A stretch of DNA of 64,000 bases from NCBI RefSeq assembly GCF_003018255.1, contig NZ_CP027440.1, one strand, 5' to 3'. Origin of the DNA: Escherichia coli. Lineage in GTDB: Bacteria; Pseudomonadota; Gammaproteobacteria; Enterobacterales; Enterobacteriaceae. The notes under the pieces were generated by a model. The model ran no database searches. It was not told the origin of the DNA and saw only the letters and a list, made by a program, of their open reading frames with translations. The stretch's first letter is position 1. Each line of letters begins with the position of its first letter. Shown here in pieces: positions 6,564 through 22,485 of the stretch. The translations under genes and the position numbers were made by a program.

Positions 6564-6779
6564 ACGCGCACCTCATTGTTGTCGGCGCTCTCTGTGTGGA
6601 GCACCTCATTTCAAGCATAGAACACCTGTTAAAAACCGCGTCGCCGGAGAATTTTTTTCTTTGCGATTTCTTATTATCAGAGTGCCACTAATCCGCTTCT
6701 GAACGGAATTTTATGCTGGATAAAAAGGGCGTTCAGCAGGAGATACTAAAGACGCCATATTGCCGCAGAGTCAGGGAGA

Positions 6780-6795
6780 TGTGAGCCAGCTCACC
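6780..6795. promoter_or_regulatory. Candidate CRP site in the dadAX promoter region
   Basis: The sequence TGTGAgccagcTCACc matches 9 of 10 core positions of TGTGA-N6-TCACA. It lies about 100 nt upstream of dadA, and the dad operon is known to be catabolite sensitive. Confidence 0.5.
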
Positions 6796-6847
6796 ATAAA
6801 AAAGCCGCATGTTGAATAATATTTTCAACTGAGTTATCAAGATGTAA

Positions 6848-8191
<1,344 letters not shown>

Positions 8192-8200
8192 GGAAACGAG

Positions 8201-9271
8201 ATGACCCGTCCGATACAGGCCAGCCTCGATCTGCAGGCATTAAAACAGAATCTGTCCATTGTCCGCCAGGCTGCGCCGTACGCGCGCGTCTGGTCGGTGG
8301 TAAAAGCAAACGCTTACGGGCACGGTATTGAGCGTATCTGGAGCGCGCTCGGGGCCACCGATGGCTTTGCATTGCTTAATCTGGAAGAGGCAATAACGTT
8401 ACGTGAGCGCGGCTGGAAAGGACCGATCCTGATGCTGGAAGGATTTTTCCATGCTCAGGATCTGGAGATTTATGACCAGCACCGCCTGACCACCTGCGTA
8501 CACAGCAACTGGCAGCTCAAAGCACTGCAAAATGCGCGGCTAAAAGCACCGTTGGATATTTATCTTAAAGTGAACAGTGGGATGAATCGGTTGGGCTTCC
8601 AGCCCGATCGCGTGCTTACCGTCTGGCAGCAGTTGCGGGCGATGGCGAATGTTGGCGAAATGACCCTGATGTCGCATTTTGCCGAGGCGGAACATCCTGA
8701 TGGAATTTCCAGCGCGATGGCGCGTATTGAGCAGGCGGCGGAAGGGCTGGAGTGTCGGCGTTCGTTGTCCAATTCGGCGGCGACTCTGTGGCACCCGGAA
8801 GCGCATTTTGACTGGGTTCGGCCTGGCATTATTTTGTATGGCGCTTCGCCGTCCGGTCAGTGGCGTGATATCGCCAATACCGGATTACGTCCGGTGATGA
8901 CGCTAAGCAGTGAGATTATTGGTGTCCAGACGCTAAAAGCGGGCGAGCGTGTGGGCTACGGCGGTCGCTATACTGCGCGCGATGAACAGCGAATCGGCAT
9001 TGTCGCCGCAGGATACGCCGACGGTTATCCGCGCCATGCGCCTACCGGTACTCCTGTTTTAGTGGACGGCGTGCGCACCATGACGGTGGGGACCGTCTCG
9101 ATGGATATGCTGGCGGTTGATTTAACGCCTTGCCCGCAGGCGGGGATTGGTACGCCGGTTGAGCTGTGGGGCAAGGAGATCAAAATTGATGATGTCGCCG
9201 CCGCTGCCGGAACGGTGGGCTATGAGTTGATGTGCGCGCTGGCGTTACGTGTCCCGGTTGTGACAGTGTAA
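8201..9271 (+). CDS. dadX: DadX, catabolic alanine racemase (PLP)
   Basis: A 356-aa ORF with the PLP-lysine motif [10 protein letters not shown], lying 9 nt after dadA. Confidence 0.96.
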
Positions 9272-12785: not shown

Positions 12786-13520
12786 TCAGTCGCGCACTTT
12801 GTCCGCTTTCTCCCGAGCTTCCCGCTCGAGAGAGAAAATAATCCGTTGTAATTGCCGCTCCACCGTCGGGCTGACGTTAAGAAAACGGAAGCTCAGACGG
12901 GGAGTGGTGATGGTTTCATTCCTGCCATCAATCACTTTGCGCTCGCTGATGGAGATTAACTGGGCGTCAAAGTGAAAAACACCCCATTGCCCCATGTTGA
13001 CTTCAATCTGAGCGAAGCGCATGCCTTCGTGCAATCCGGCAGGCTTTGTTGTTTCCAGTAATGCGCCCATGCCGCCTAACGACAAATCATACAGGCGGAA
13101 ACGTAACGTACTGTTATCCGCCAGTTTGGTCTGGCAAAAATATGGCGGATGGAGTGGGGCGGTGATGCGGAAATATCGGCGTCGTTGTACAAACCATAAG
13201 GTGGGAGGCGGTACGGTAATAAATGCCGGAAGCTGCAAGTATTCACTCTGCTGTAGTTGTTCAACAGTAAACTCGACTTTCGCACCCTGAGTTTCGGCGG
13301 TAATGGTAATGTGCTGCGCCTTTAGCACGGCGATGTTGTCTTCGGCCCGGCTGCCGAAATCCAGCACCAGTTTATCCGGAGTTATTGCCAGTATTTTGCT
13401 GATCAGCTGCCCGCCATTCCAGCTAATACGCAAAGGAATTGCGGCTTTGTGCAAATCGCGTAACACGCCCAGGACGGCTAACGGATTTTGTTTCAGGAAC
13501 TGCTCATGGTAATGACTCAC
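12786..13520 (-). CDS. ycgR: YcgR, c-di-GMP binding PilZ flagellar brake
   Basis: A 244-aa ORF with the PilZ motifs RRRYFR and DLSLGG. Confidence 0.95.
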   Translation of the reverse strand: MSHYHEQFLKQNPLAVLGVLRDLHKAAIPLRISWNGGQLISKILAITPDKLVLDFGSRAEDNIAVLKAQHITITAETQGAKVEFTVEQLQQSEYLQLPAFITVPPPTLWFVQRRRYFRITAPLHPPYFCQTKLADNSTLRFRLYDLSLGGMGALLETTKPAGLHEGMRFAQIEVNMGQWGVFHFDAQLISISERKVIDGRNETITTPRLSFRFLNVSPTVERQLQRIIFSLEREAREKADKVRD

Positions 13521-13720
13521 GCGGAAAAACTCCTGACTGACAAACTGTCTTAGGTTTATCGGTCACAGTTAACAAAACTTAATACAAATGCGTGAATGTT
13601 TTTTACATGTCGTTCTTAAATCAGCCGACATACGCCCAGCATCGATCCCGCCCTTGCCTATACTTAGAGCGTTGACGTAAGCATTTCTTGCGTCCGATTC
13701 ATCGAAACGAGGGCCTGAAC

Positions 13721-13975
13721 ATGGGAATTATTGCCTGGATTATTTTTGGCCTGATAGCCGGCATAATCGCCAAGCTAATCATGCCGGGACGTGATGGTGG
13801 TGGATTTTTCCTGACCTGTATTCTCGGGATAGTCGGTGCGGTGGTCGGCGGCTGGCTGGCGACCATGTTTGGCATTGGCGGCTCCATCAGTGGTTTTAAT
13901 TTGCACAGCTTCCTGGTGGCGGTGGTGGGCGCTATCCTGGTGCTGGGCGTATTCCGCCTTCTGCGAAGAGAATAA
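13721..13975 (+). CDS. ymgE: YmgE, small GlsB/YeaQ/YmgE-family membrane protein
   Basis: The start is at ATG 13721 (MGIIAWIIFG), giving 84 aa. It is a Gly-rich two/three-TM protein. Confidence 0.9.
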   Translation: MGIIAWIIFGLIAGIIAKLIMPGRDGGGFFLTCILGIVGAVVGGWLATMFGIGGSISGFNLHSFLVAVVGAILVLGVFRLLRRE

Positions 13976-13987
13976 GATTTTCATAAG

Positions 13988-14020
13988 GCGGATAGCGATA
14001 CATATGCCGCTATCCGCTTT
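13988..14020 (+). terminator. Terminator hairpin after ymgE, at the left edge of the island
   Basis: Perfect 10-bp stem gcggatagcg / cgctatccgc with a 10-nt loop, followed by ttt. It lies between the convergent stops of ymgE and the receptor gene. Confidence 0.7.
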
Positions 14021-14024
14021 CACA

Positions 14025-15995
14025 TCAGAACGTATACTCGATACCTGCCCAGAAATTGCGACCTTCTTCAATAAACCCTTCACTGTAGGCATATTTGGTA
14101 TCAAACAGGTTATTGACCGACGCATTGACGCTGAAGCCATGACCTAAGGTGTAATCGGCTCGAATGTGAGTCACCGCAAAACCGGCGGCTTTTTGTGAAC
14201 CGTCACTGTTGCTGTAGCTGGAGGAACGCGCCTCTTCCGACAGCGTTACGCTTAACGGCTCCCACGGTTTGAGAGTCATCCATGCGGTCATTGTCTGCGT
14301 TGGCAGATCGGTTATCTTGCCGATGTCTTTGCGTTTGGCATCAGCGTGGATCAGGGCGTAGCTCAATCCTACATCCAGTATATTGCTGATTTTCCCCTTA
14401 ATACCGGCATCCAGACCGCTGTAATCCACCGTGCCGCTGTTCTGATTTTGAATGGTATCGGCATCGATATTGTGCGAGAGGATGGCATCACTCACCCGGT
14501 TATAGTAAACGCTGACCTCAAACCCCCAGTCGTGCGTGAAGGCACCATTCCAGGTTAAATCCACCCCGCGCGCGCGTTCCGGCTTGAGCTGCGGGTTAAC
14601 AATCGCTATCTGGTTATACGCAGGTTTGGACGTGGTATAGCGTTCTTTCAGCGTCGGAAAGCGTGTGCGGTCATAGTACGAAAGCGCCAGCGTGTCTTCA
14701 TTGGCAAAGTGGTATTTCCCCATCACCTGCCAGTTAAAAGCTGACTGATTGTTGTCGTCATAATGGGTGATACTGCCATCTTTCTCATGTTTTTTCGCTT
14801 CTACGCTATCGCGCCAGTCATAGCTGATTCCAGCCACGACATCGACATTATCGGCAGCAGCCCATTGATATTCACTGGCGAGCGACCAGGTACGATCTTC
14901 ATAGCGATCGTAAGCGGCGTGCGGCGCACCTTTTTCCCGGTGTACGTCATCTTTCCAGTTAACGGCAAACGACAGCAGATCGTTTTCACGCACATCGGCT
15001 GCCAGTTGTAACCCGGCACCGTCGCTGTAATCGGAATAATGGCTGTAGCTGCCTTTTTTATTTTTCAAATCAGCCAGCGAGTTGTACATCATCAGCGTAT
15101 TTTCAAAGGTATCGCGATACAGCCGACTTTTCAGGGTAAAACGATCGTTTAGTTGGGTCGTTCCCTGATAATAAAAACTTTCTTTGTCATACTCTGGCCA
15201 CTGCCAGTAGCGTGATTTTTGACCACTATTTCCACTGTATGGCGGATTATCTTTTTCACCATCCTGCTTAATGTAAGTCAATGTGTATTCATCGTTTTCG
15301 CGTGGTGTAAAACCGAGCTTCACAATGCCGCGTTTATCATCAGCCGATGAATTAATCATCTTGCCGTGTTTGCCTGCAATATCATTATTTACACCATGCG
15401 GCAGGCCGAGAAAATCCTGCTTTAGCTGGCTACCGCTGACTTGCAAATACCCCAGATCGCTGCTGGCGGCAAATGAAGCATGCATATCGTAGGCATTGTC
15501 CTGGCTACGGCTCCATCCCTGGCGATATCCCAGATTTGCTTCCAGAGGTTTTGTTGGCTTCTGGGTGGTGATATTAATGGCTCCGCCCATCTGATTAGGC
15601 CCCTGAAGCAGCGACGAATACCCTTTGGAAACTTCAACTGCCCCCAAATTGTTGGTCAGAATCCGCGCCAGATCGAGGTTGCCGTCATAGGGAACATAAA
15701 TGGGCACACCGTCGAAATAGACTGGCACCTGACGACTATCAAAGCCACGAACTTTGACCTGTTCTTCGTTGCGGCTACCTGACTTTTGCAGCACCACGCC
15801 GGGGACGACACTTAATGCCTGAGCGACATTCTGTTTATCCAGGGCCTTCATGGTGGGGTGATCGAGAACGGTGGTCGTCGTCGATGATACCGGACTGGAC
15901 CATACGGTCAGCGTGTCACTCTCCTGAGCCGCTAAGGCCTGCTGGGTAAAGGCAAGTGATAATGCTGTGCAGAGATAACGTTTTTTGAGTCTCAT
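14025..15995 (-). CDS. TonB-dependent outer-membrane receptor (chelate/siderophore class), substrate unknown
   Basis: The start is at ATG 15995 (signal peptide MRLKKRYLCTALSLAFTQQALA). It has the TonB-box-like segment DTLTVWS, a plug segment and a long beta-barrel ending in the aromatic terminus GIEYTF. There is no N-terminal signalling extension. Confidence 0.88.
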   Translation of the reverse strand: MRLKKRYLCTALSLAFTQQALAAQESDTLTVWSSPVSSTTTTVLDHPTMKALDKQNVAQALSVVPGVVLQKSGSRNEEQVKVRGFDSRQVPVYFDGVPIYVPYDGNLDLARILTNNLGAVEVSKGYSSLLQGPNQMGGAINITTQKPTKPLEANLGYRQGWSRSQDNAYDMHASFAASSDLGYLQVSGSQLKQDFLGLPHGVNNDIAGKHGKMINSSADDKRGIVKLGFTPRENDEYTLTYIKQDGEKDNPPYSGNSGQKSRYWQWPEYDKESFYYQGTTQLNDRFTLKSRLYRDTFENTLMMYNSLADLKNKKGSYSHYSDYSDGAGLQLAADVRENDLLSFAVNWKDDVHREKGAPHAAYDRYEDRTWSLASEYQWAAADNVDVVAGISYDWRDSVEAKKHEKDGSITHYDDNNQSAFNWQVMGKYHFANEDTLALSYYDRTRFPTLKERYTTSKPAYNQIAIVNPQLKPERARGVDLTWNGAFTHDWGFEVSVYYNRVSDAILSHNIDADTIQNQNSGTVDYSGLDAGIKGKISNILDVGLSYALIHADAKRKDIGKITDLPTQTMTAWMTLKPWEPLSVTLSEEARSSSYSNSDGSQKAAGFAVTHIRADYTLGHGFSVNASVNNLFDTKYAYSEGFIEEGRNFWAGIEYTF

Positions 15996-16020
15996 AGAAT
16001 AAATTCCGTTTAACAAAGAA

Positions 16021-16875
16021 TTAAATAGAGGCTGCGGGTTGCAGACTGACTTTAATGTCAGCTGGTGTCGCGTAATAAGGCGCGGAGGTAATAAAAAGGC
16101 GAATGCCGCAGTCGAGGTAATTTTTGAGTGTTGTCAGATTAATTCCGCCGGTCAGAGCCAGCGTGCAGTGAGGAGCCAGCGACGGTGCTATTTGCGCAAT
16201 TTCAGTTGCCTGTTGCGGATTAAATTTGTCGAGCTGAAGTACGTCTGGTTGCGCGCGTAACGCGGCGATTGCCTCTTTCGGCGTGTCGGCTTCAACAACT
16301 ATTTTCTTCTCGGGTGCGTGGCGGCGTAACTGATTGATTGCGCCTGACCAGTCCTGATTGTCATGAAGAAAATGACGGTGGTTGGCAAACAATAATATGG
16401 TTTCCGCACATCCGGCACGATGAATCAGTCCTCCGGCAGCCAGAATTGCCTGCGAGGCCAGTAAGCGGGTGCCCGGAATTGCTTTTCGGGTGCAGGCGAT
16501 ATTGCCATCAGGGTAACGTTCACGAAGTAACGCCAGCATTTGAGCGAGATAATCAGAAACACCGCAACTCCACTCCAGCACATTCTGGACTGCCTTCCAT
16601 CCCTGATGAAGTGCTGCGGCATTACCCTGCGCACGGATTAGCCGCTGACCCGCGTTCGCTTGTGAACCGTCGCTGACTGCGTCATCAATAGTTAATCCCA
16701 GCGTAGTTAACATCTTACACGCGACAGAAATTCCGCTGACGCAGCCGCCCTGACGGTGAAAAAACTCTATATAGCCATGCTGGTGTCCAATATTTAATGC
16801 TCGCGTGGTCAGGTCACCGCCCTGGATATCTTCCAGAAGTAACGCATCGATTTGTGCCTGAGAAAGGAAAATCAT
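16021..16875 (-). CDS. modD: ModD-family protein (quinolinate/nicotinate phosphoribosyltransferase fold), function unknown
   Basis: A 284-aa ORF with the type II PRTase core TRKAIPGTRLLASQAILAAGGLIHRAGCAETILLFANH. The ATG overlaps the upstream stop (ATGA at 16872-16875). Confidence 0.8.
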   Translation of the reverse strand: MIFLSQAQIDALLLEDIQGGDLTTRALNIGHQHGYIEFFHRQGGCVSGISVACKMLTTLGLTIDDAVSDGSQANAGQRLIRAQGNAAALHQGWKAVQNVLEWSCGVSDYLAQMLALLRERYPDGNIACTRKAIPGTRLLASQAILAAGGLIHRAGCAETILLFANHRHFLHDNQDWSGAINQLRRHAPEKKIVVEADTPKEAIAALRAQPDVLQLDKFNPQQATEIAQIAPSLAPHCTLALTGGINLTTLKNYLDCGIRLFITSAPYYATPADIKVSLQPAASI

Positions 16876-17684
16876 CGCAGTGCCTCTTGCGGTACGCTAT
16901 CCCACCAGATGAGCGCCCAGTCGCGGCTGGCAGGGGCGAGGGCACGAGCATCTTGTTGTTGATACCAGCGATATAACCGCTCACGCTCATCGTCGTTAAG
17001 CGCGCCCAGACTCCAGCTGACGTTCTGCTCAAAACGTTCCCAGGTGCTGTTATCCTGTTGGCAATTTTGTCCGCGGATAAAATCAACGTGAGCATAAATT
17101 CCCATCTGATACAGGACGTTGAGCGCAAAGATATAGTTGGGTAATTCGACCACTTCCCGACCAGCCGCCCGCTGAATGGCTGGAGAGACGAACGAGGTGC
17201 TGACCAGATGAGTCGTATAGACGCGAAGCCGTGCCTGATTATTCAGTTTGCTCATTGCCTGGCGCATATCAGCCACCAGAGTGGAGCGGGAAGCCACGGC
17301 AATATCGCAGCGTGGCAGGTCACTCCAGTCCTCTTCCCAGGCGCGCTGGATCCAGTGGACATTGTCTGCCTTTAGCGCGGCGGCGCGACGGGCGGCAACG
17401 TTCAGCATCCCCTGACTGTAATCAACGCCATAAATCGTCGTGAGTTTGTCCGCCAGCGCCAGCGATACGGTACCCGGTCCGCAGCCCATATCGAATAAGG
17501 TTTGCGCGCCTTGCAGGTCAATTTTTGAGGTCAGTTGTTGCAGGTAGCTGTCCGTCGGCGAGGCGCAATTTTCCGCCATTTTTTCCGCCCGTTGATCCCA
17601 GTGATCCGGCGTTTTTTCTGTGCGATGGGCCAGCCTGAGTTGCTGAAGGTAAAGGTCTGCAAAATCAATATCGTCAATGAGCAT
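16872..17684 (-). CDS. Class I SAM-dependent methyltransferase, substrate unknown
   Basis: A 270-aa ORF with SAM motif I LFDMGCGPGTVSLALA, followed by the acidic motif II IYGVDYS. Confidence 0.8.
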   Translation of the reverse strand: MLIDDIDFADLYLQQLRLAHRTEKTPDHWDQRAEKMAENCASPTDSYLQQLTSKIDLQGAQTLFDMGCGPGTVSLALADKLTTIYGVDYSQGMLNVAARRAAALKADNVHWIQRAWEEDWSDLPRCDIAVASRSTLVADMRQAMSKLNNQARLRVYTTHLVSTSFVSPAIQRAAGREVVELPNYIFALNVLYQMGIYAHVDFIRGQNCQQDNSTWERFEQNVSWSLGALNDDERERLYRWYQQQDARALAPASRDWALIWWDSVPQEALR

Positions 17685-17693
17685 GATTTTTCC

Positions 17694-18452
17694 TTAGTGC
17701 TTAATTGCAGAGAGGTGATGGTGAATCTGGTCGGCAGAAACCCGGTACAGGGCAGCCAGTTTTTTCGTTGTTAACTGTTCGGTCGGTAAGCCTTGTGTTA
17801 CTCGTCCATCTGGCTCTACCTGGATAATGCTGTCGGCAATGGCGTTTGCATGGAGCGGATGATGAGTCGACATTAACATTGTCATGCCGTTATTTTTGAG
17901 CTGCGCCAGCGTGTCCAGAAGTTGGATCTGATGACCGAAATCGAGGCTAGAGGCAGGCTCATCCAGTAATAACAAGCGCGGTTGCTGGACGAGTGCACGG
18001 GCGATTAAAGCCAGCTGACGTTCACCGCCGCTAAGCGTATTCCAGCGTCGTGTCGCCAGATGCAAAATGCCCAGCTTTTCCAGTTGCTCCGTTGCTTTCA
18101 GGCGTTCTTGCTTACCGGGAACGGAAAAAGCGCCTATGGTGGGGGCCTGGCCCATCAACACCATATCCAGCACACTAAAAGCAAAAATGCCGTCGTGCGC
18201 CTGCGGCACCCAGGCAATAGCCTGCGCGCGCTGGCGATGGCTGAGTGTCTGCACAGGGAGGCTATCCAGTAAGATCTCGCCTTTTAATAACGGTATAACG
18301 CCAAGAATGGAGCGCATGAGTGTGGTTTTGCCGCAACCATTGGCTCCTAACAGACAACAAATTGTTCCTTGCGACAGGGTGAAGGACACGTCGCGTAGCA
18401 CCGGATGGCGGGAGTAACCCAGAGACGCATGACGGACGGCAAGCAAAGTCAC
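17694..18452 (-). CDS. ABC transporter ATPase (FepC/FecE/BtuD type)
   Basis: It has Walker A GANGCGKTT, signature LSGGERQ and Walker B LLLLDEP. I chose the GTG start at 18452 because GGAGG precedes it and it overlaps the permease stop (GTGA). The longer track ORF up to 18590 would run 140 nt into the permease gene. Confidence 0.85.
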   Translation of the reverse strand: MTLLAVRHASLGYSRHPVLRDVSFTLSQGTICCLLGANGCGKTTLMRSILGVIPLLKGEILLDSLPVQTLSHRQRAQAIAWVPQAHDGIFAFSVLDMVLMGQAPTIGAFSVPGKQERLKATEQLEKLGILHLATRRWNTLSGGERQLALIARALVQQPRLLLLDEPASSLDFGHQIQLLDTLAQLKNNGMTMLMSTHHPLHANAIADSIIQVEPDGRVTQGLPTEQLTTKKLAALYRVSADQIHHHLSAIKH

Positions 18453-19429
18453 TGGCGACCTCCGCGTAACAACAAAAACAGGAAAAACGGTGCGCCAACA
18501 AAAGCGGTCAGAATGCCAAGTGGGATTTCTGTTGTTCCAATGCTGCGTGCCAGCGTATCGGTAAGCAGGAGCAGAATCGCGCCAGTACACATTGCCATGG
18601 GCAACAGCTGCTGATGGTTATGACCGGTCAACAAGCGGGCAATGTGCGGAACGACCAGGCCGACCCAACCAATTATGCCCGCTATTGCTACCGTGCTGGC
18701 GGTGATGAGTGTGGCACAGACAATCAATCCAAAGCGCAGACGTGTCACGTTCAGTCCCAGCGAACGGGCTTCGTCGTCGGAAAGCGTGAGTAAATTCATG
18801 CGCCAGCGGAGAAAAAACAGGGGCAAGGAGCCTATGAGAATGATCGGTGCAGCATAGCAGAGATCGCGTAAGGTCACGGTGGACAGCCCCCCCAGCAACC
18901 AGAAGGTAATTGACGGTAACTGGGTATAAGGATCGGCCAGCGTTTTTATTAGCGATATCCCCGCTCCGCACAACGTTCCTAACGCAATGCCTACCAGCAC
19001 CAGGGTTAAGATCGGATCGTGGCGGGTCACCCGACGCGTAATCAACCAGACGCCCGCGACCACCATCAGCCCGCCGCAAAATGCGTACAGCTGGATGTAA
19101 ACAATGGATAATCCCCACAGGATTGCCGCGCAGGCACCAAGTCCGGCACCGGCGGAGACGCCTAAAATATCCGGTGACACTAAGGGATTACGGAACATTC
19201 CCTGATAGGTGGTTCCGGCCCCTGCCAGCGCCGCGCCCAGAAACAGCGCAGCAAGAATACGCGGCACGCGGATTTGCCAGAAGACAATTTGTTCCTGCAC
19301 AGTAACATTTTCTTGACGAAGAATGAGCGCCAGCAGTTGCTGCATATCGAGATGATAAGCCCCACTTACGGCGGCAAAAGTGATACTGATAGCTGCCAGC
19401 AGCAAAATACATCCGTTTACGGTTCTCAT
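18449..19429 (-). CDS. FecCD/BtuC-family ABC permease
   Basis: A 326-aa polytopic ORF with typical FecCD-family organisation. The ATG shares one nt with the upstream TAA (TAATG). Confidence 0.87.
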   Translation of the reverse strand: MRTVNGCILLLAAISITFAAVSGAYHLDMQQLLALILRQENVTVQEQIVFWQIRVPRILAALFLGAALAGAGTTYQGMFRNPLVSPDILGVSAGAGLGACAAILWGLSIVYIQLYAFCGGLMVVAGVWLITRRVTRHDPILTLVLVGIALGTLCGAGISLIKTLADPYTQLPSITFWLLGGLSTVTLRDLCYAAPIILIGSLPLFFLRWRMNLLTLSDDEARSLGLNVTRLRFGLIVCATLITASTVAIAGIIGWVGLVVPHIARLLTGHNHQQLLPMAMCTGAILLLLTDTLARSIGTTEIPLGILTAFVGAPFFLFLLLRGGRQ

Positions 19430-20451
19430 TAGCTCGCCACCAATTTTTGATAGTCGGCGTCACTTAATGGGCAATGCCAGAACAGTTGGGCGTAATGCTG
19501 CATGTCACTTTTAAACTGGCGATTGATGGCGGGATCCAGCCAGGCGTGAAGTCTGCGTAATCCCAGAAGACGGTTGATTCCCGGCGGGGCATCCAGCCAG
19601 CCAAAGGGCAGGCCACTTAAAAATAAGATGCGTTGTTCCGCAACCGCTTTCACGCCCTGCCAGAGAGGATCACGACGAATAAAATCTGCAGTAACGGCCT
19701 CCTGAACCAGAATAATATCCGGCTGCCAGCGCAGGAGATTTTCCATGGAAACCTGTGTCAGACCGTGGCGATCGGCTATTTGCGCGACGTTGTGCAAACC
19801 TAATAATTCCGCCGCCTCGGTATGCAACGAACCCTGTAAGCCCGTTTCCAGCCCTCGAGGACCGCGCGCAGCATAAAAGCTGAGATTAGCGGCGGGTGAG
19901 GTGGCGAATGCCTGAGCTTCACCAACGAAGCGGCTGGCGAGATTGGCTTGTTCTGCGGCGCGGTGCTCTTCGCCTAACGTTTTGCCAAGCGTTGTTAACT
20001 GTTCTGCTGATTGTTCCAGTTTCCCGTTAAGCAATAACCAGGGTATTTGTGTCTGTTCGCTAACCTGCCGTGCCTGGGAGATCCAGGTTTCATCCGTATT
20101 GCCGCAATCAACGACCAAATCGGGATGTAACGCCATAAGCCCTTCCAGCGAGAGTGTACTGGCGCGCCCGGCGAGTCGTCCCAGCCTGGGGAACTGGCGA
20201 ATGTGCTCTGGCAATGGAATTAATGCCTGACGGGCAAAATCAAAAGAGGAAAAACCGACCATTTTTTCTGGCGCGACAGCCAGCAATAGTAAATCGGCGG
20301 GCGCGCCTGCGCTGACGATGCGTGTAATGTTTTGGGCTTCGGGAAGCGTCAGTGAGGCCCAGAATTTGACTGATTGTGCAAAGGACGGCAGATGATGCAG
20401 GAACAATGTCGACGCAAGAATCTGTGTAAACCTCCGTCTGGTTAGTGACAT
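19429..20451 (-). CDS. Periplasmic substrate-binding protein (class III, FhuD/BtuF-like) with a twin-arginine type signal
   Basis: The preferred start is ATG 20451 (MSLTRRRFTQILASTLFLHHLPSFA-QS), preceded by AGGA. The track ORF start at 20493 adds 14 residues ahead of the signal n-region. Confidence 0.8.
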   Translation of the reverse strand: MSLTRRRFTQILASTLFLHHLPSFAQSVKFWASLTLPEAQNITRIVSAGAPADLLLLAVAPEKMVGFSSFDFARQALIPLPEHIRQFPRLGRLAGRASTLSLEGLMALHPDLVVDCGNTDETWISQARQVSEQTQIPWLLLNGKLEQSAEQLTTLGKTLGEEHRAAEQANLASRFVGEAQAFATSPAANLSFYAARGPRGLETGLQGSLHTEAAELLGLHNVAQIADRHGLTQVSMENLLRWQPDIILVQEAVTADFIRRDPLWQGVKAVAEQRILFLSGLPFGWLDAPPGINRLLGLRRLHAWLDPAINRQFKSDMQHYAQLFWHCPLSDADYQKLVAS

Positions 20452-20628
20452 AAGTAATATCCTGATAATTAAAACCGCTATATACTTACACATATAGCGA
20501 AAAAGATCATGTTTGATGTCAAAATTTGTCTAAAGAGACGGAATGATTTGCTTGTTGCTTAAATAACACTTTGTTCCACAAGAAAATTGTCAGGGAGAAT
20601 GGGGAGTGGGGGAAAATATAAATAGAGG

Positions 20629-20647
20629 TGTAATGATTAACAAGTTG
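20629..20647 (-). promoter_or_regulatory. Candidate sigma70 promoter with an overlapping Fur-like box for the island operon
   Basis: The minus strand reads TTGTTA-17 nt-TATATT. The overlapping caacttgttaatcattaca matches the 19-bp Fur consensus GATAATGATAATCATTATC at 12/19 positions. The match is weak and this is a prediction only. Confidence 0.3.
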
Positions 20648-20729
20648 ATAAAATAAAATTAAAATCTTCTCTAATAAAAGAAAATAAAGGCATAGACCGT
20701 AGAAAGAGTGGTATTTGGTATTTCGTGGT

Positions 20730-20773
20730 GAAGAAAGAGCAATGCCAATTTTATGCACGTAATGGCATTGCTC
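20730..20773 (-). terminator. Rho-independent terminator after treA
   Basis: Perfect 11-bp stem gagcaatgcca / tggcattgctc with a 15-nt loop, followed on the minus strand by tctttctt. Confidence 0.7.
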
Positions 20774-20787
20774 GATATACAGTAAAG

Positions 20788-22485
20788 TTAAGGCGTAGGT
20801 TCCGCCTCATTTTGTTTTACCGGCTGTGTTGTTGATTCACTGAGTGGACGCGTCGCCGGAACATTGTCGCACGGTTGCTCTTTCGGGCAGATCAAATCCA
20901 GCATTTTCAGCGTCACGCCATTGGTCCAGCCAAAGCCATCCTGTAATGGATATTCGCCACCGCCGCCCCCTGTTCCGGTGGTGCTGACATCATATTTTTC
21001 CACCAGCTTTTTCTCCCGGTCATAGGTGTGCTGAACATTGGTCAGGAAGTGCCAGCTAATGTCCATCGCCACCTCTTTTTGCCCGTAGTTTTGTAATCCT
21101 TCTGTCGCGACCCACTGCAACGGTGCCCAGCCGTTTGGCGCATCCCATTGTTGCCCACTTTTCACCGACGTGGTGTTCAGGCCGCCTGGTTGCAGCAGAT
21201 GTGTTTTCGTCGCCGTCGCCATTTTGCTGGCGCGATCTTTCGCTGCCGCATTGACGTACAGCGGGAACAGGGCGGCCGCGGTTAACTGATTGCGCACTTT
21301 ATGACTTTTCAGGTCGTAATCGGCATACCAGCCTTGTTGATCGTTCCACAGGTATTTTTCGATCCCTTTTTGACGGGCATTCGCCAGCGTTTCGTACTGG
21401 TTTGCCATCGCGTTATCTCCGGCAGCTTTGCTGGCGCGGGCGAGGATTTTTTCCATTTTAAACATCAGGCTGTTCAGATCGACCGGTACGATGCTGGTGG
21501 TGCGTAAGGTATTTAACTGCTGCGGATTGTCCATCCAGCGCGAGCTGAAATCCCAGCCAGACGCAGCGGCAGAGCGCAGGTCGCGGTAAATTTCAGTGGC
21601 AGGTCGATTCGGATTGCTTTTGGCGGTGGCAATATCTTCCACCCATGACTCTGGTCGTGGCGTATCGCGATCGTCCCAGTAGCGGTTGAGAAGGGTACCA
21701 TCCTGAAGTTTGACAACGCGTTTTTCCTGTTGTCCGGCTTGCAGGTTTTCAACACCGTCCATCCAGTAAGCATATTCTTTTTGCATTTGCGGCAGGTATT
21801 GCTTCAACGCGGCATCGCCTTCATGCTGCGCCAGTAACTCTACCATCAGGGCAAAGAATGGCGGTTGTGAGCGGCTTAAATAGTAACTGCGGTTGCCGTT
21901 GGGAATATGCCCGTAAGTGTCTATTTCATGAGCAAAATTGGCCACCATATCCGCGACTTTATCCCAGTGACCACTTTCGGCAAGCCCTAACATGGTGAAG
22001 TAACTGTCCCAGTAATATACCTCGCGAAAACGTCCGCCCGGCACAACATAAGGTTCCGGCAGCGGTAACAGAGAATCCCATTTTTCGGTATTTTCGGTAG
22101 AACGCGTTAATACCGGCCAAAGTCCGTCAATATGTTCGCGTAGTGATTGCCCCTCTGGCGGAACATATTTCTCGCCCTCTTTCGGCAGGGTGAAATTGAC
22201 GTTAACGAAATGGCGTAGATCAAATCCGCTCTGGTTTTGCTGCATCCGATAATCAGCAAGGATCATCAGCGGATCGCTGTTCGGCACGGCATCGGCAAAG
22301 GTTTTTTGGTCCGGAAAAAGTTTGGCGTTTTGCACATCATTAAACAGCGGCCCTAATAAAATATCAGGCGGCTGTGGCGTTACCGGTGTTTCTTCTGCCT
22401 GCACCGATAGCGCAGCGAAACACAAAAAGATGCAGGCTGGAATTAACGCCATTTTTAGCGGGCGAGAAGCTGCGGGGGATTTCAT
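20788..22485 (-). CDS. treA: TreA, periplasmic trehalase (GH37)
   Basis: The start is at ATG 22485 ([30 protein letters not shown], a signal peptide) after AAGGAG, giving 565 aa. Recognised as TreA. Confidence 0.96.

Follow-up and report, generated by a model that had tools for sequence, protein, structure and literature searches.

Which substrate could be served by an Escherichia coli import operon in which the genes for two cytoplasmic enzymes, the phosphoribosyltransferase-like protein ModD and a class I S-adenosylmethionine (SAM)-dependent methyltransferase, lie between the gene for an ATP-binding cassette (ABC) ATPase and the gene for a TonB-dependent outer-membrane receptor? The operon is located in a 64,000-nucleotide stretch of an E. 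coli chromosome (contig NZ_CP027440.1; this entire stretch is hereinafter referred to as the window), where six minus-strand genes between ymgE and treA encode, in order, a periplasmic binding protein (PBP), a FecCD-family permease, the ATPase, the methyltransferase, ModD and the receptor, each assignment being backed by Pfam and NCBIfam models. A previous reading of the DNA letters alone (the sequence-only reading) considered this operon in the frame of siderophore and cobalamin import. The comparative analysis described here points in a different direction: the operon is probably a ModE-repressed, TonB-dependent module for the acquisition of molybdenum, or possibly tungsten, an interpretation to which we assign a probability of about 0.6.

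A predicted ModE operator upstream of the operon

Upstream of the PBP gene, we detected a perfect palindrome, CGCTATAT-gtgtaagt-ATATAGCG (20476..20499), that ends 24 nt before the probable start codon of this gene. Under the ModE-type consensus CGnTATAT-N8-ATATAnCG, the sequence CGNTATAT-N8-ATATANCG is the single match in the whole 64-kb window, the chance expectation for a perfect palindrome being approximately 2e-4 per 64 kb. Direct comparison with the modA region of E. coli K-12 showed that the half-sites, the spacing and the distance to the start codon all mirror those of the modA operator, a ModE site known from experiment, CGTTATAT-tgtcgcct-ACATAACG, which has 1 mismatch and whose end is 19 nt from the modA ATG. 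All 9 enterobacterial genera compared retain the box upstream of the orthologous operon, at a distance of 19-34 nt to the start codon and with 0-3 mismatches (none in Pectobacterium and Raoultella; 1 in Citrobacter, Serratia and Morganella; 2 in Erwinia; 3 in Proteus), compared to the 5-6 mismatches that are typical of random 303-nt windows. In five loci, the receptor gene is preceded by a separate box of the same type. Four of these are enterobacterial loci with a long gap between the ModD and receptor genes (Proteus, Pectobacterium, Serratia and Morganella), where the second box is directly 5' of the receptor gene; the fifth is that of Shewanella yunxiaonensis, in which the PBP gene and the receptor gene are each preceded by a perfect box. 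The same type of site has been published for the modDABC operon of Geobacter (PMC545781). Judging from the agreement with the consensus and the conservation across genera, the palindrome is predicted to be a ModE operator, and by analogy with the position of the modA operator and with the molybdate-responsive mol genes of Haemophilus influenzae (see below), ModE probably represses the operon.

The same region was searched for signatures of other regulatory regimes. No Fur box was found within 3 mismatches across the window, and the best Fur-box match in the promoter (13/19) falls inside the null distribution; nor was there any Rfam match at E<=1 over positions 13500-21000, that is, no riboswitch or RNA element. 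A scan for sigma-70 promoters produced a sole minus-strand match, about 115 nt upstream, and none over the operator; a perfect TTGACA is present 20 nt before the TATAT of the box, a spacing too long for a promoter call. The terminator scan flagged the palindrome (20475-20500) as a terminator-like hairpin followed by T's, a hit that most likely arises simply from the palindromic sequence and the AT-rich leader.

A MolBC-like importer and an uncharacterized TonB-dependent receptor

The first three genes of the operon encode a type II ABC importer, namely the class III PBP (19429..20451, minus strand; Peripla_BP_2, PF01497), the permease (18449..19429, minus strand; PF01032, 299 bits) and the ATPase (17694..18452, minus strand; PF00005). 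The best relative of the permease in PDB is HI1471/MolB of H. influenzae (2nq2, chain 2nq2_A; 219 bits), ahead of FhuB (176 bits), HmuU (168 bits) and BtuC (147 bits), and the best match of the ATPase to a structure with a single nucleotide-binding domain is HI1470/MolC from the same complex (2nq2_C; 128 bits). Against the NCBIfam models, the PBP scores at most 32 bits, with cutoffs of at least 205, and its phmmer matches in PDB, which show partial similarity, are the uncharacterized Sulfurospirillum protein 4pag and then MolA. The AlphaFold2 (AF2) model of the PBP (predicted local distance difference test score, pLDDT, of 87) has as its structural neighbors 4pag, 4ovk and MolA (3psa), which come ahead of siderophore-, heme- and B12-binding proteins; in this model-based comparison, MolA, at rank 4 (TM-score 0.68, 20% identity), appears to be the nearest characterized PBP structure. 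The automatically delimited open reading frame starts with an ATG at 20493, inside the palindrome, which is probably a wrong start; the ATG at 20451 is likelier and yields an N-terminus, MSLTRRRF, with a signal of the twin-arginine (Tat) type in which R5 and R6 are invariant across 23 homologs.

MolBC-A (HI1470-HI1472) is a type II "secondary, low-affinity" molybdate importer. Like the E. coli island, it combines an importer of the FecCD/BtuCD fold with a class III PBP, and both are encoded beside modD: in H. influenzae, the mol genes adjoin modD (HI1473) in the listed layout modA, molCBA, modD, salX, cysU (PMC3928620). Transcription of molB is repressed by molybdate via a factor described as unknown (PMC4031551), a response that matches the ModE-type operator of the E. 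coli island. Unlike the island, the H. influenzae locus as listed includes neither a TonB-dependent receptor nor a methyltransferase. In a 2020 review of molybdenum in pathogens, H. influenzae is the only organism for which MolBCA is mentioned.

The receptor ("prrA"; 14025..15995, minus strand), which starts with either an ATG at 15995 or a TTG at 16016, contains the plug and beta-barrel Pfam domains and, near the N-terminus, a TonB-box-like sequence, DTLTVWS. It scores under the cutoff of every NCBIfam receptor family (for instance, 127 vs 223.5 for TIGR01783 and 126 vs 316.9 for TIGR01785) and has no relatives in PDB at E<=1e-8; by these comparisons, it is an uncharacterized lineage. A full-length relative (36% identity, E=1e-117) is the receptor encoded in a mod locus of Geobacteraceae (L013). 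Membership in a cobalamin uptake system is not indicated by the scores either: the receptor reaches 80 against the BtuB cutoff of 600, the scores on the BtuC models, 198-242, stay under the cutoffs of 334-461, and no riboswitch was detected. A corrinoid- or cobamide-remodeling function, considered on account of weak CpaM and BtuC-like matches, was dropped given that these scores are far under the cutoffs and a riboswitch was not found.

The island can further be compared with two classes of related systems. With the Fec, Fhu, Btu and Hmu importers it shares the receptor with its TonB-box-like sequence, the class III PBP, the FecCD permease and the ATPase; it differs from them in the lack of a Fur box or B12 riboswitch, in the scores of the receptor and the PBP, which are under the cutoffs of the characterized families, in the two embedded cytoplasmic enzymes and in the ModE-type operator. 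With the ModABC/ModE systems (E. coli; modABCD of Rhodobacter, modDABC of Geobacter) it shares the type of operator and its modA-like distance from the start codon, as well as ModD, which is frequent in such operons of other phyla. ModABC, however, belongs to the type I importers, uses a class II PBP (SBP_bac_11) and has no outer-membrane receptor, in contrast to the type II importer, TonB-dependent receptor and additional methyltransferase of the island. Taken together with the Fur and riboswitch searches, the ModE-type operator and the MolBC-A-like transporter speak against the siderophore and cobalamin frame of the sequence-only reading, which recorded that ModD had been named from a molybdate operon and did not take the further step of regarding the present operon as a molybdenum system in its own right.

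ModD, a predicted phosphoribosyltransferase with an altered acceptor site

The function of ModD has been unresolved since the protein was named from the modABCD operon of Rhodobacter. The window protein (16021..16875, minus strand; 284 aa) is a member of this family, with 501.4 bits against the TIGR01334 cutoff of 178.85 over profile positions 1-277 of 277, and has the NadC-like type II phosphoribosyltransferase fold (QRPTase_N and QRPTase_C). It is under the cutoff of the NadC equivalog model (TIGR00078, 135.7 vs 198.4). An exhaustive search yielded 1244 relatives at E<=1e-10, and an alignment of 96 ModD sequences defines a family signature, TRK..PGT, GG..HR, L.F..H, QLDK and GGI, that is present in the window protein, including the motifs TRKAIPGTR, GGLIHR and LFANH.

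We then established residue equivalences by combining an alignment to the quinolinic acid phosphoribosyltransferase of Mycobacterium tuberculosis (NadC; 1QPN/1QPR) with the 96-sequence alignment. M. tuberculosis R139 corresponds to ModD R130 (R in 95/96), K140 to K131 (K in 92/96), H161 to H152 (H in 94/96), R162 to R153 (R in 94/96), H175 to H166 (H in 93/96), E201 to E195 (E in 93/96) and D222 to D216 (D in 66/96, E in 25/96), such that these equivalents are found in at least 91 of the 96 sequences, in agreement with the claim of the sequence-only reading that ModD keeps the core of type II phosphoribosyltransferases. The equivalents of E201 and D222 we take, from general knowledge of type II phosphoribosyltransferases, to be those involved in the binding of phosphoribosyl pyrophosphate (PRPP) and Mg. 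The two remaining positions belong to the acceptor site: R105', contributed as K94 in ModD, is K in 72/96 and R in 21/96, and K172 is replaced by F163, with F in 91/96. In the M. tuberculosis enzyme, the C2 carboxylate of quinolinate is held by K172 together with R105', the K172A mutant is inactive, and R105', R139, R162, K172 and H175 are each essential (PMC4065032). The quinolinate-binding set is accordingly incomplete in ModD, with K172 lost and the other four residues kept (R105' as K or R). Because the Lys needed to bind the C2 carboxylate is a Phe in 91 of the 96 sequences, quinolinate is an unlikely substrate of ModD, which weakens the suggestion of a quinolinate-like dicarboxylate made previously. 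Thus, ModD resembles NadC in the two-domain fold and in most of the catalytic residues, and differs from it in the K172 to Phe replacement, the sub-cutoff equivalog score and a molybdenum-related genomic context in place of NAD synthesis. Overall, ModD looks like a competent PRPP-dependent phosphoribosyltransferase that would use an acceptor other than quinolinate.

Several natural fusions of ModD were encountered in the database searches (P0143, P0148, P0195 and P0168), namely two ABC ATPase-ModD proteins, a ModD-NifQ protein and a truncated ModD combined with two TOBE domains.

A narrow methyltransferase family

The gene next to modD ("yc73"; 16872..17684, minus strand) encodes a methyltransferase of 270 aa with SAM motif I (DMGCGPG). 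It matches generic methyltransferase Pfam models only (Methyltransf_25, _31, _11 and _12) and could not be placed in any characterized substrate-specific subfamily, the best NCBIfam match being CpaM (43 bits vs the required 180) and the best sequence match in PDB having E=1e-4. The AF2 model (pLDDT 91) shows alternating beta and alpha elements, and in a Foldseek search with this model all neighbors appear to be generic small-molecule SAM methyltransferases (TM-scores of 0.5-0.6 and at most 19% identity). The family is narrow, with 165 homologs at E<=1e-5 among 5.8 billion proteins, distributed in Enterobacterales, Shewanella and a few metagenomic sequences; the ortholog in the Geobacteraceae locus L013 is 31% identical (E=3e-35).

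ModD follows molybdenum genes and the methyltransferase follows the receptor

The same six-gene order and the 4-nt overlap between the methyltransferase and ModD genes are present in Proteus, Pectobacterium, Citrobacter, Raoultella, Serratia, Morganella and Erwinia, and this recurrence across genera indicates that the arrangement is not due to chance. In Edwardsiella, the methyltransferase-ModD pair occurs alone, still overlapping and behind a ModE-type box, and the transporter is absent. Two of the enterobacterial loci contain additional genes at their borders: in Pectobacterium, a gene for a 142-aa, two-TOBE, molbindin-like protein is immediately upstream of the operon (L003, 3643-4071), and in Raoultella, the receptor gene is followed by a gene for a MOSC/YiiM-domain protein and a second TonB-dependent receptor gene (L086, 9892-12922). 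The molbindin-like and MOSC-domain genes are additional hints of a link to molybdenum.

To place ModD in a broader context, we analyzed 80 distant ModD loci from species-representative genomes, mostly of Alpha- and Deltaproteobacteria, Chlorobi and Firmicutes, including many diazotrophs; this set is biased in that all the loci come from the ModD subgroup with the HRLGLSET motif. Neighbors within 10 kb of ModD were counted in six-frame translations, with the identities of the clusters confirmed by Pfam. By these counts, modA, modB or modE is present in 40/80 loci, nitrogenase markers in 21/80 and at least one of the two groups in 49/80 (61%); a FecCD permease was found in 3/80 and a methyltransferase of the window type in 1/80, the other 79 loci having ModD without it. 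Three loci combine ModD with a FecCD-type importer. In Geobacteraceae (L013), the genes lie on one strand in the order PBP-FecCD-ATPase-receptor-methyltransferase-radical SAM-unknown-modE-ModD-modABC; in Desulfosporosinus (L068), modABC-ModD-PBP-FecCD-ATPase is followed by nitrogenase genes; and in a member of Spirochaetota (L037), FecCD-ATPase and ModD-modAABC are divergently oriented, and a perfect box is located just 5' of ModD. The two additional genes between the methyltransferase and modE genes of the Geobacteraceae locus (6688-8888) encode a radical-SAM enzyme (349 aa) and a protein of 400 aa that matches no Pfam family, and both may be further members of the same pathway.

The methyltransferase has a different distribution. 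Shewanella and a divergent metagenomic operon (L092) have it together with the transporter and the receptor but lack ModD, and it is absent where a MolBC-like importer comes without a receptor, as in Desulfosporosinus (L068) and in H. influenzae as listed (PMC3928620). In general, then, ModD tracks molybdenum genes and the methyltransferase tracks the receptor-containing transporter, the latter correlation being observed in about eight lineages. The ModD-less metagenomic operons have the order receptor-DUF2478-PBP-FecCD-ATPase-methyltransferase. The DUF2478 gene (PF10649; L092, 4556-5101, and L093, 2894-3439) also occurs no more than 3 kb from ModD in 6 of the 80 distant loci, and its presence in both settings suggests that DUF2478 is another molybdenum-linked protein.

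These distributions bear on several propositions of the sequence-only reading. The position of the enzyme pair between the ATPase and the receptor, the ATGA overlap and the quoted motifs were all confirmed in the sequence, and the co-occurrence of these enzymes with a transporter, which had been proposed as a check, is indeed seen in Enterobacterales, Shewanella and one Geobacteraceae genome. The phrase "transport plus modification" is a fair description, and the enzymes are integral, conserved members of the operon. The more specific scheme, phosphoribosylation followed by methylation of one ligand, is not directly supported: some loci carry the methyltransferase without ModD (Shewanella, L092), and most carry ModD without the methyltransferase (79/80); since the two enzymes occur separately, they need not act on one substrate.

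A tentative model and its alternatives

We infer the following order of steps for the operon as a molybdenum (or tungsten) acquisition module. Molybdate-bound ModE would repress the operon, which would provide a second molybdenum route when the metal is scarce. The receptor would carry a molybdenum species across the outer membrane, the Tat-exported, MolA-like PBP would hand it to the MolBC-like type II ABC importer, and the two cytoplasmic enzymes would then act on the imported material, with the methyltransferase most likely modifying an organic partner of the imported molybdenum.

Several considerations weigh against this interpretation. Free molybdate is expected to enter through porins, which leaves the TonB-dependent receptor unexplained unless the substrate is complexed or extremely scarce. 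The model system itself is ambiguous in that molybdate is bound by MolA with a weak affinity, about 100 uM, making the true substrate of that system uncertain, and the PBP of the island is only about 20% identical to MolA, with uncharacterized proteins as the best structural neighbors. To our knowledge, there is no chemistry that would tie molybdenum to a phosphoribosyltransferase of the NadC type or to a SAM methyltransferase. Furthermore, ModE, an annotated dual regulator, can also activate genes, and the divergent metagenomic operon (L092/L093) has no E. coli-type box. The dispensability of a receptor for free molybdate and the correlation between the receptor and the methyltransferase suggest the import of a molybdenum-ligand complex or else a transport system that operates at extremely low concentrations. 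Following the former possibility, one can imagine a dedicated TonB-dependent pathway for molybdenum-organic complexes, either "molybdophores" or host- or diet-derived compounds, that is switched on by molybdenum starvation through ModE and in which the carrier is taken apart or converted by the methyltransferase and ModD in the cytoplasm of Enterobacteria, Shewanella and Geobacteraceae; we regard this more specific scheme as speculative, a possibility on the doubtful side.

Among the alternatives, the uptake of iron, with the enzymes processing a siderophore, is the one assumed in the E. coli literature, and the parts of the operon (TonB-dependent receptor, Peripla_BP_2 protein, FecCD permease and ATPase) are indeed typical of ferric-chelate uptake. 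Nevertheless, we consider it very unlikely: the best Fur-box candidate in the promoter is indistinguishable from the null, with none in the window at the 3-mismatch threshold, the receptor is under the cutoff of every siderophore and heme model, and a conserved ModE-type operator occupies the regulatory position. The published iron label (PMC1890555, PMC12928451), which the RefSeq "iron" name of the PBP echoes, is in those papers a matter of homology only. Somewhat less remote, although still unlikely, is a salvage scheme in which molybdate-bound ModE activates the operon, the imported compound is an N-heteroaromatic carboxylate or cofactor precursor that is salvaged by ModD and the methyltransferase, and the link to molybdenum goes through a downstream molybdoenzyme. 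Such a scheme would account for the retention in ModD of the phosphoribosyltransferase catalytic residues and the carboxylate-binding arginines, and it is compatible with the dual-regulator annotation of ModE and with the structural neighbors of the methyltransferase, all of which are small-molecule enzymes. It sits poorly, however, with the presence of ModD in modABC/modE operons, i.e., among molybdenum-starvation genes, in other phyla, with the distance of 19-34 nt between the operator and the start codon, as in the repressed modA promoter, and with the molybdate repression of the homologous mol genes of H. influenzae; the fusions of ModD to NifQ, TOBE domains and a ModC-type ATPase also point to a metal and not to a carbon substrate.

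Two further alternatives retain molybdenum and change the role of the enzymes. ModD and the methyltransferase could make a secreted molybdenum chelator, a "molybdophore", that is reimported in the loaded form by the receptor and the ABC importer. Biosynthesis and uptake under a single metal operator are the standard layout of metallophore systems, a TonB-dependent receptor implies a chelate-sized substrate, and the methyltransferase gene of the Geobacteraceae locus has genes for a radical-SAM enzyme and an uncharacterized protein next to it. We find this scheme quite improbable all the same, given that the operon includes no exporter, that phosphoribosylated products are not normally secreted and that two enzymes would amount to a very thin biosynthetic pathway; moreover, Shewanella and L092 have the receptor, the importer and the methyltransferase but no ModD, and in most cases no receptor and no type II importer are encoded in the vicinity of ModD. 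Alternatively, ModD could be non-enzymatic, holding molybdate in the cationic quinolinate/PRPP pocket in a regulatory or storage capacity and gating the transporter, with the methyltransferase detoxifying co-imported oxyanions. The conserved Arg, Lys and His residues do form an anion-binding site, and ModD is fused C-terminally to an ABC ATPase, at the position where ModC has its molybdate-sensing TOBE domain, as well as to TOBE domains. Plain anion binding, however, would not need the acidic equivalents of E201 (93/96) and D222 (91/96) that are kept in the family, and the methyltransferase has no specific similarity to enzymes of the ArsM or TehB type, so this possibility, too, strikes us as quite unlikely.

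Operon architecture and the accessory island

The whole operon is translationally coupled. The PBP and permease genes share TAATG at their junction, and the permease and ATPase genes share GTGA, with GGAGG in front; the ATPase stop at 17694 is followed by a 9-nt gap with a Shine-Dalgarno sequence and the methyltransferase ATG; and the methyltransferase and ModD genes overlap by ATGA ("ctgcgATGAttttcc"). Given the upstream GGAGG and the GTGA shared with the permease stop, the true start of the ATPase is probably the GTG at 18452; the GTG at 18590 of the automatically delimited open reading frame would result in an overlap of about 140 nt with the permease gene.

The operon belongs to the accessory genome of E. 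coli. In the chromosome analyzed here, it is flanked by dadX, cvrA, ldcA, emtA, ycgR and ymgE on one side and by treA and dhaMLK on the other side, and the full 6.9-kb stretch was detected by megablast in 2139 of 5426 complete E. coli genomes (approximately 39%). K-12 has the unrelated gene ycgY, and not the island, between ymgE and treA (L094, 1984-2679). The possibility that ycgY is a decayed remnant of the island was rejected, the only common sequence being 73 nt beside ymgE (window positions 13976-14048 and 20494-20787 compared); the site thus holds either ycgY or the six-gene island as alternative cassettes. We also observed what appear to be decay products of the operon (P0400, P0064 and P0380), namely an E. 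coli protein that joins the PBP to the C-terminal domain of ModD (23 contigs), a C-terminal fragment of ModD (14 contigs) and a protein of Edwardsiella in which ABC ATPase and methyltransferase domains are combined, and some lineages probably carry internally deleted versions of the operon.

The pairing of the methyltransferase and ModD is not new: RefSeq already labels the products "ModD protein", "class I SAM-dependent methyltransferase" and, for the PBP, "iron ABC transporter substrate-binding protein", and the cluster is named in the literature. It was first seen on a pathogenicity island of strain CFT073, corresponds to ECs1693-ECs1699 in O157 Sakai, and has been designated prrA-modD-yc73-fepC and "proposed to be involved in iron uptake" (PMC1890555; PMC12928451). 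We found no paper that ties the E. coli cluster to molybdate in the literature searched, which did not cover primary work on the ModE motif or RegPrecise; a search for ModD, TonB, methyltransferase and E. coli in combination retrieved only unrelated "modD" papers on DNA methylases and phasevarions.

Implications

If the operon is a molybdenum system, the repeated annotation of this locus as related to iron uptake or associated with virulence, and the conclusions drawn from it, would be wrong. The cluster is carried by enterohemorrhagic E. coli (EHEC) O157 and by extraintestinal pathogenic E. coli (ExPEC) of the CFT073 type. During gut inflammation, the blooms of Enterobacteriaceae are driven by anaerobic respiration that depends on molybdoenzymes, and intervention with tungstate has been suggested. 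If many strains indeed have an additional, TonB-dependent pathway for molybdenum or tungsten, it would bear on both the blooms and the intervention.

The finding also matters for the two protein families involved. MolBC-A serves as the structural model for type II importers even though its physiological substrate is doubtful, and the receptor-linked relatives described here suggest where to look for that substrate. ModD occurs here in a genetically tractable organism, together with a partner enzyme, a predicted regulator and a specific difference from NadC in the active site, which makes its function testable. Should the pathway for molybdenum-organic complexes prove true, it would provide the first biochemical function for ModD and identify the physiological substrate class of the MolBC-A-type importers, for which the puzzling affinity to free molybdate is only about 100 uM.

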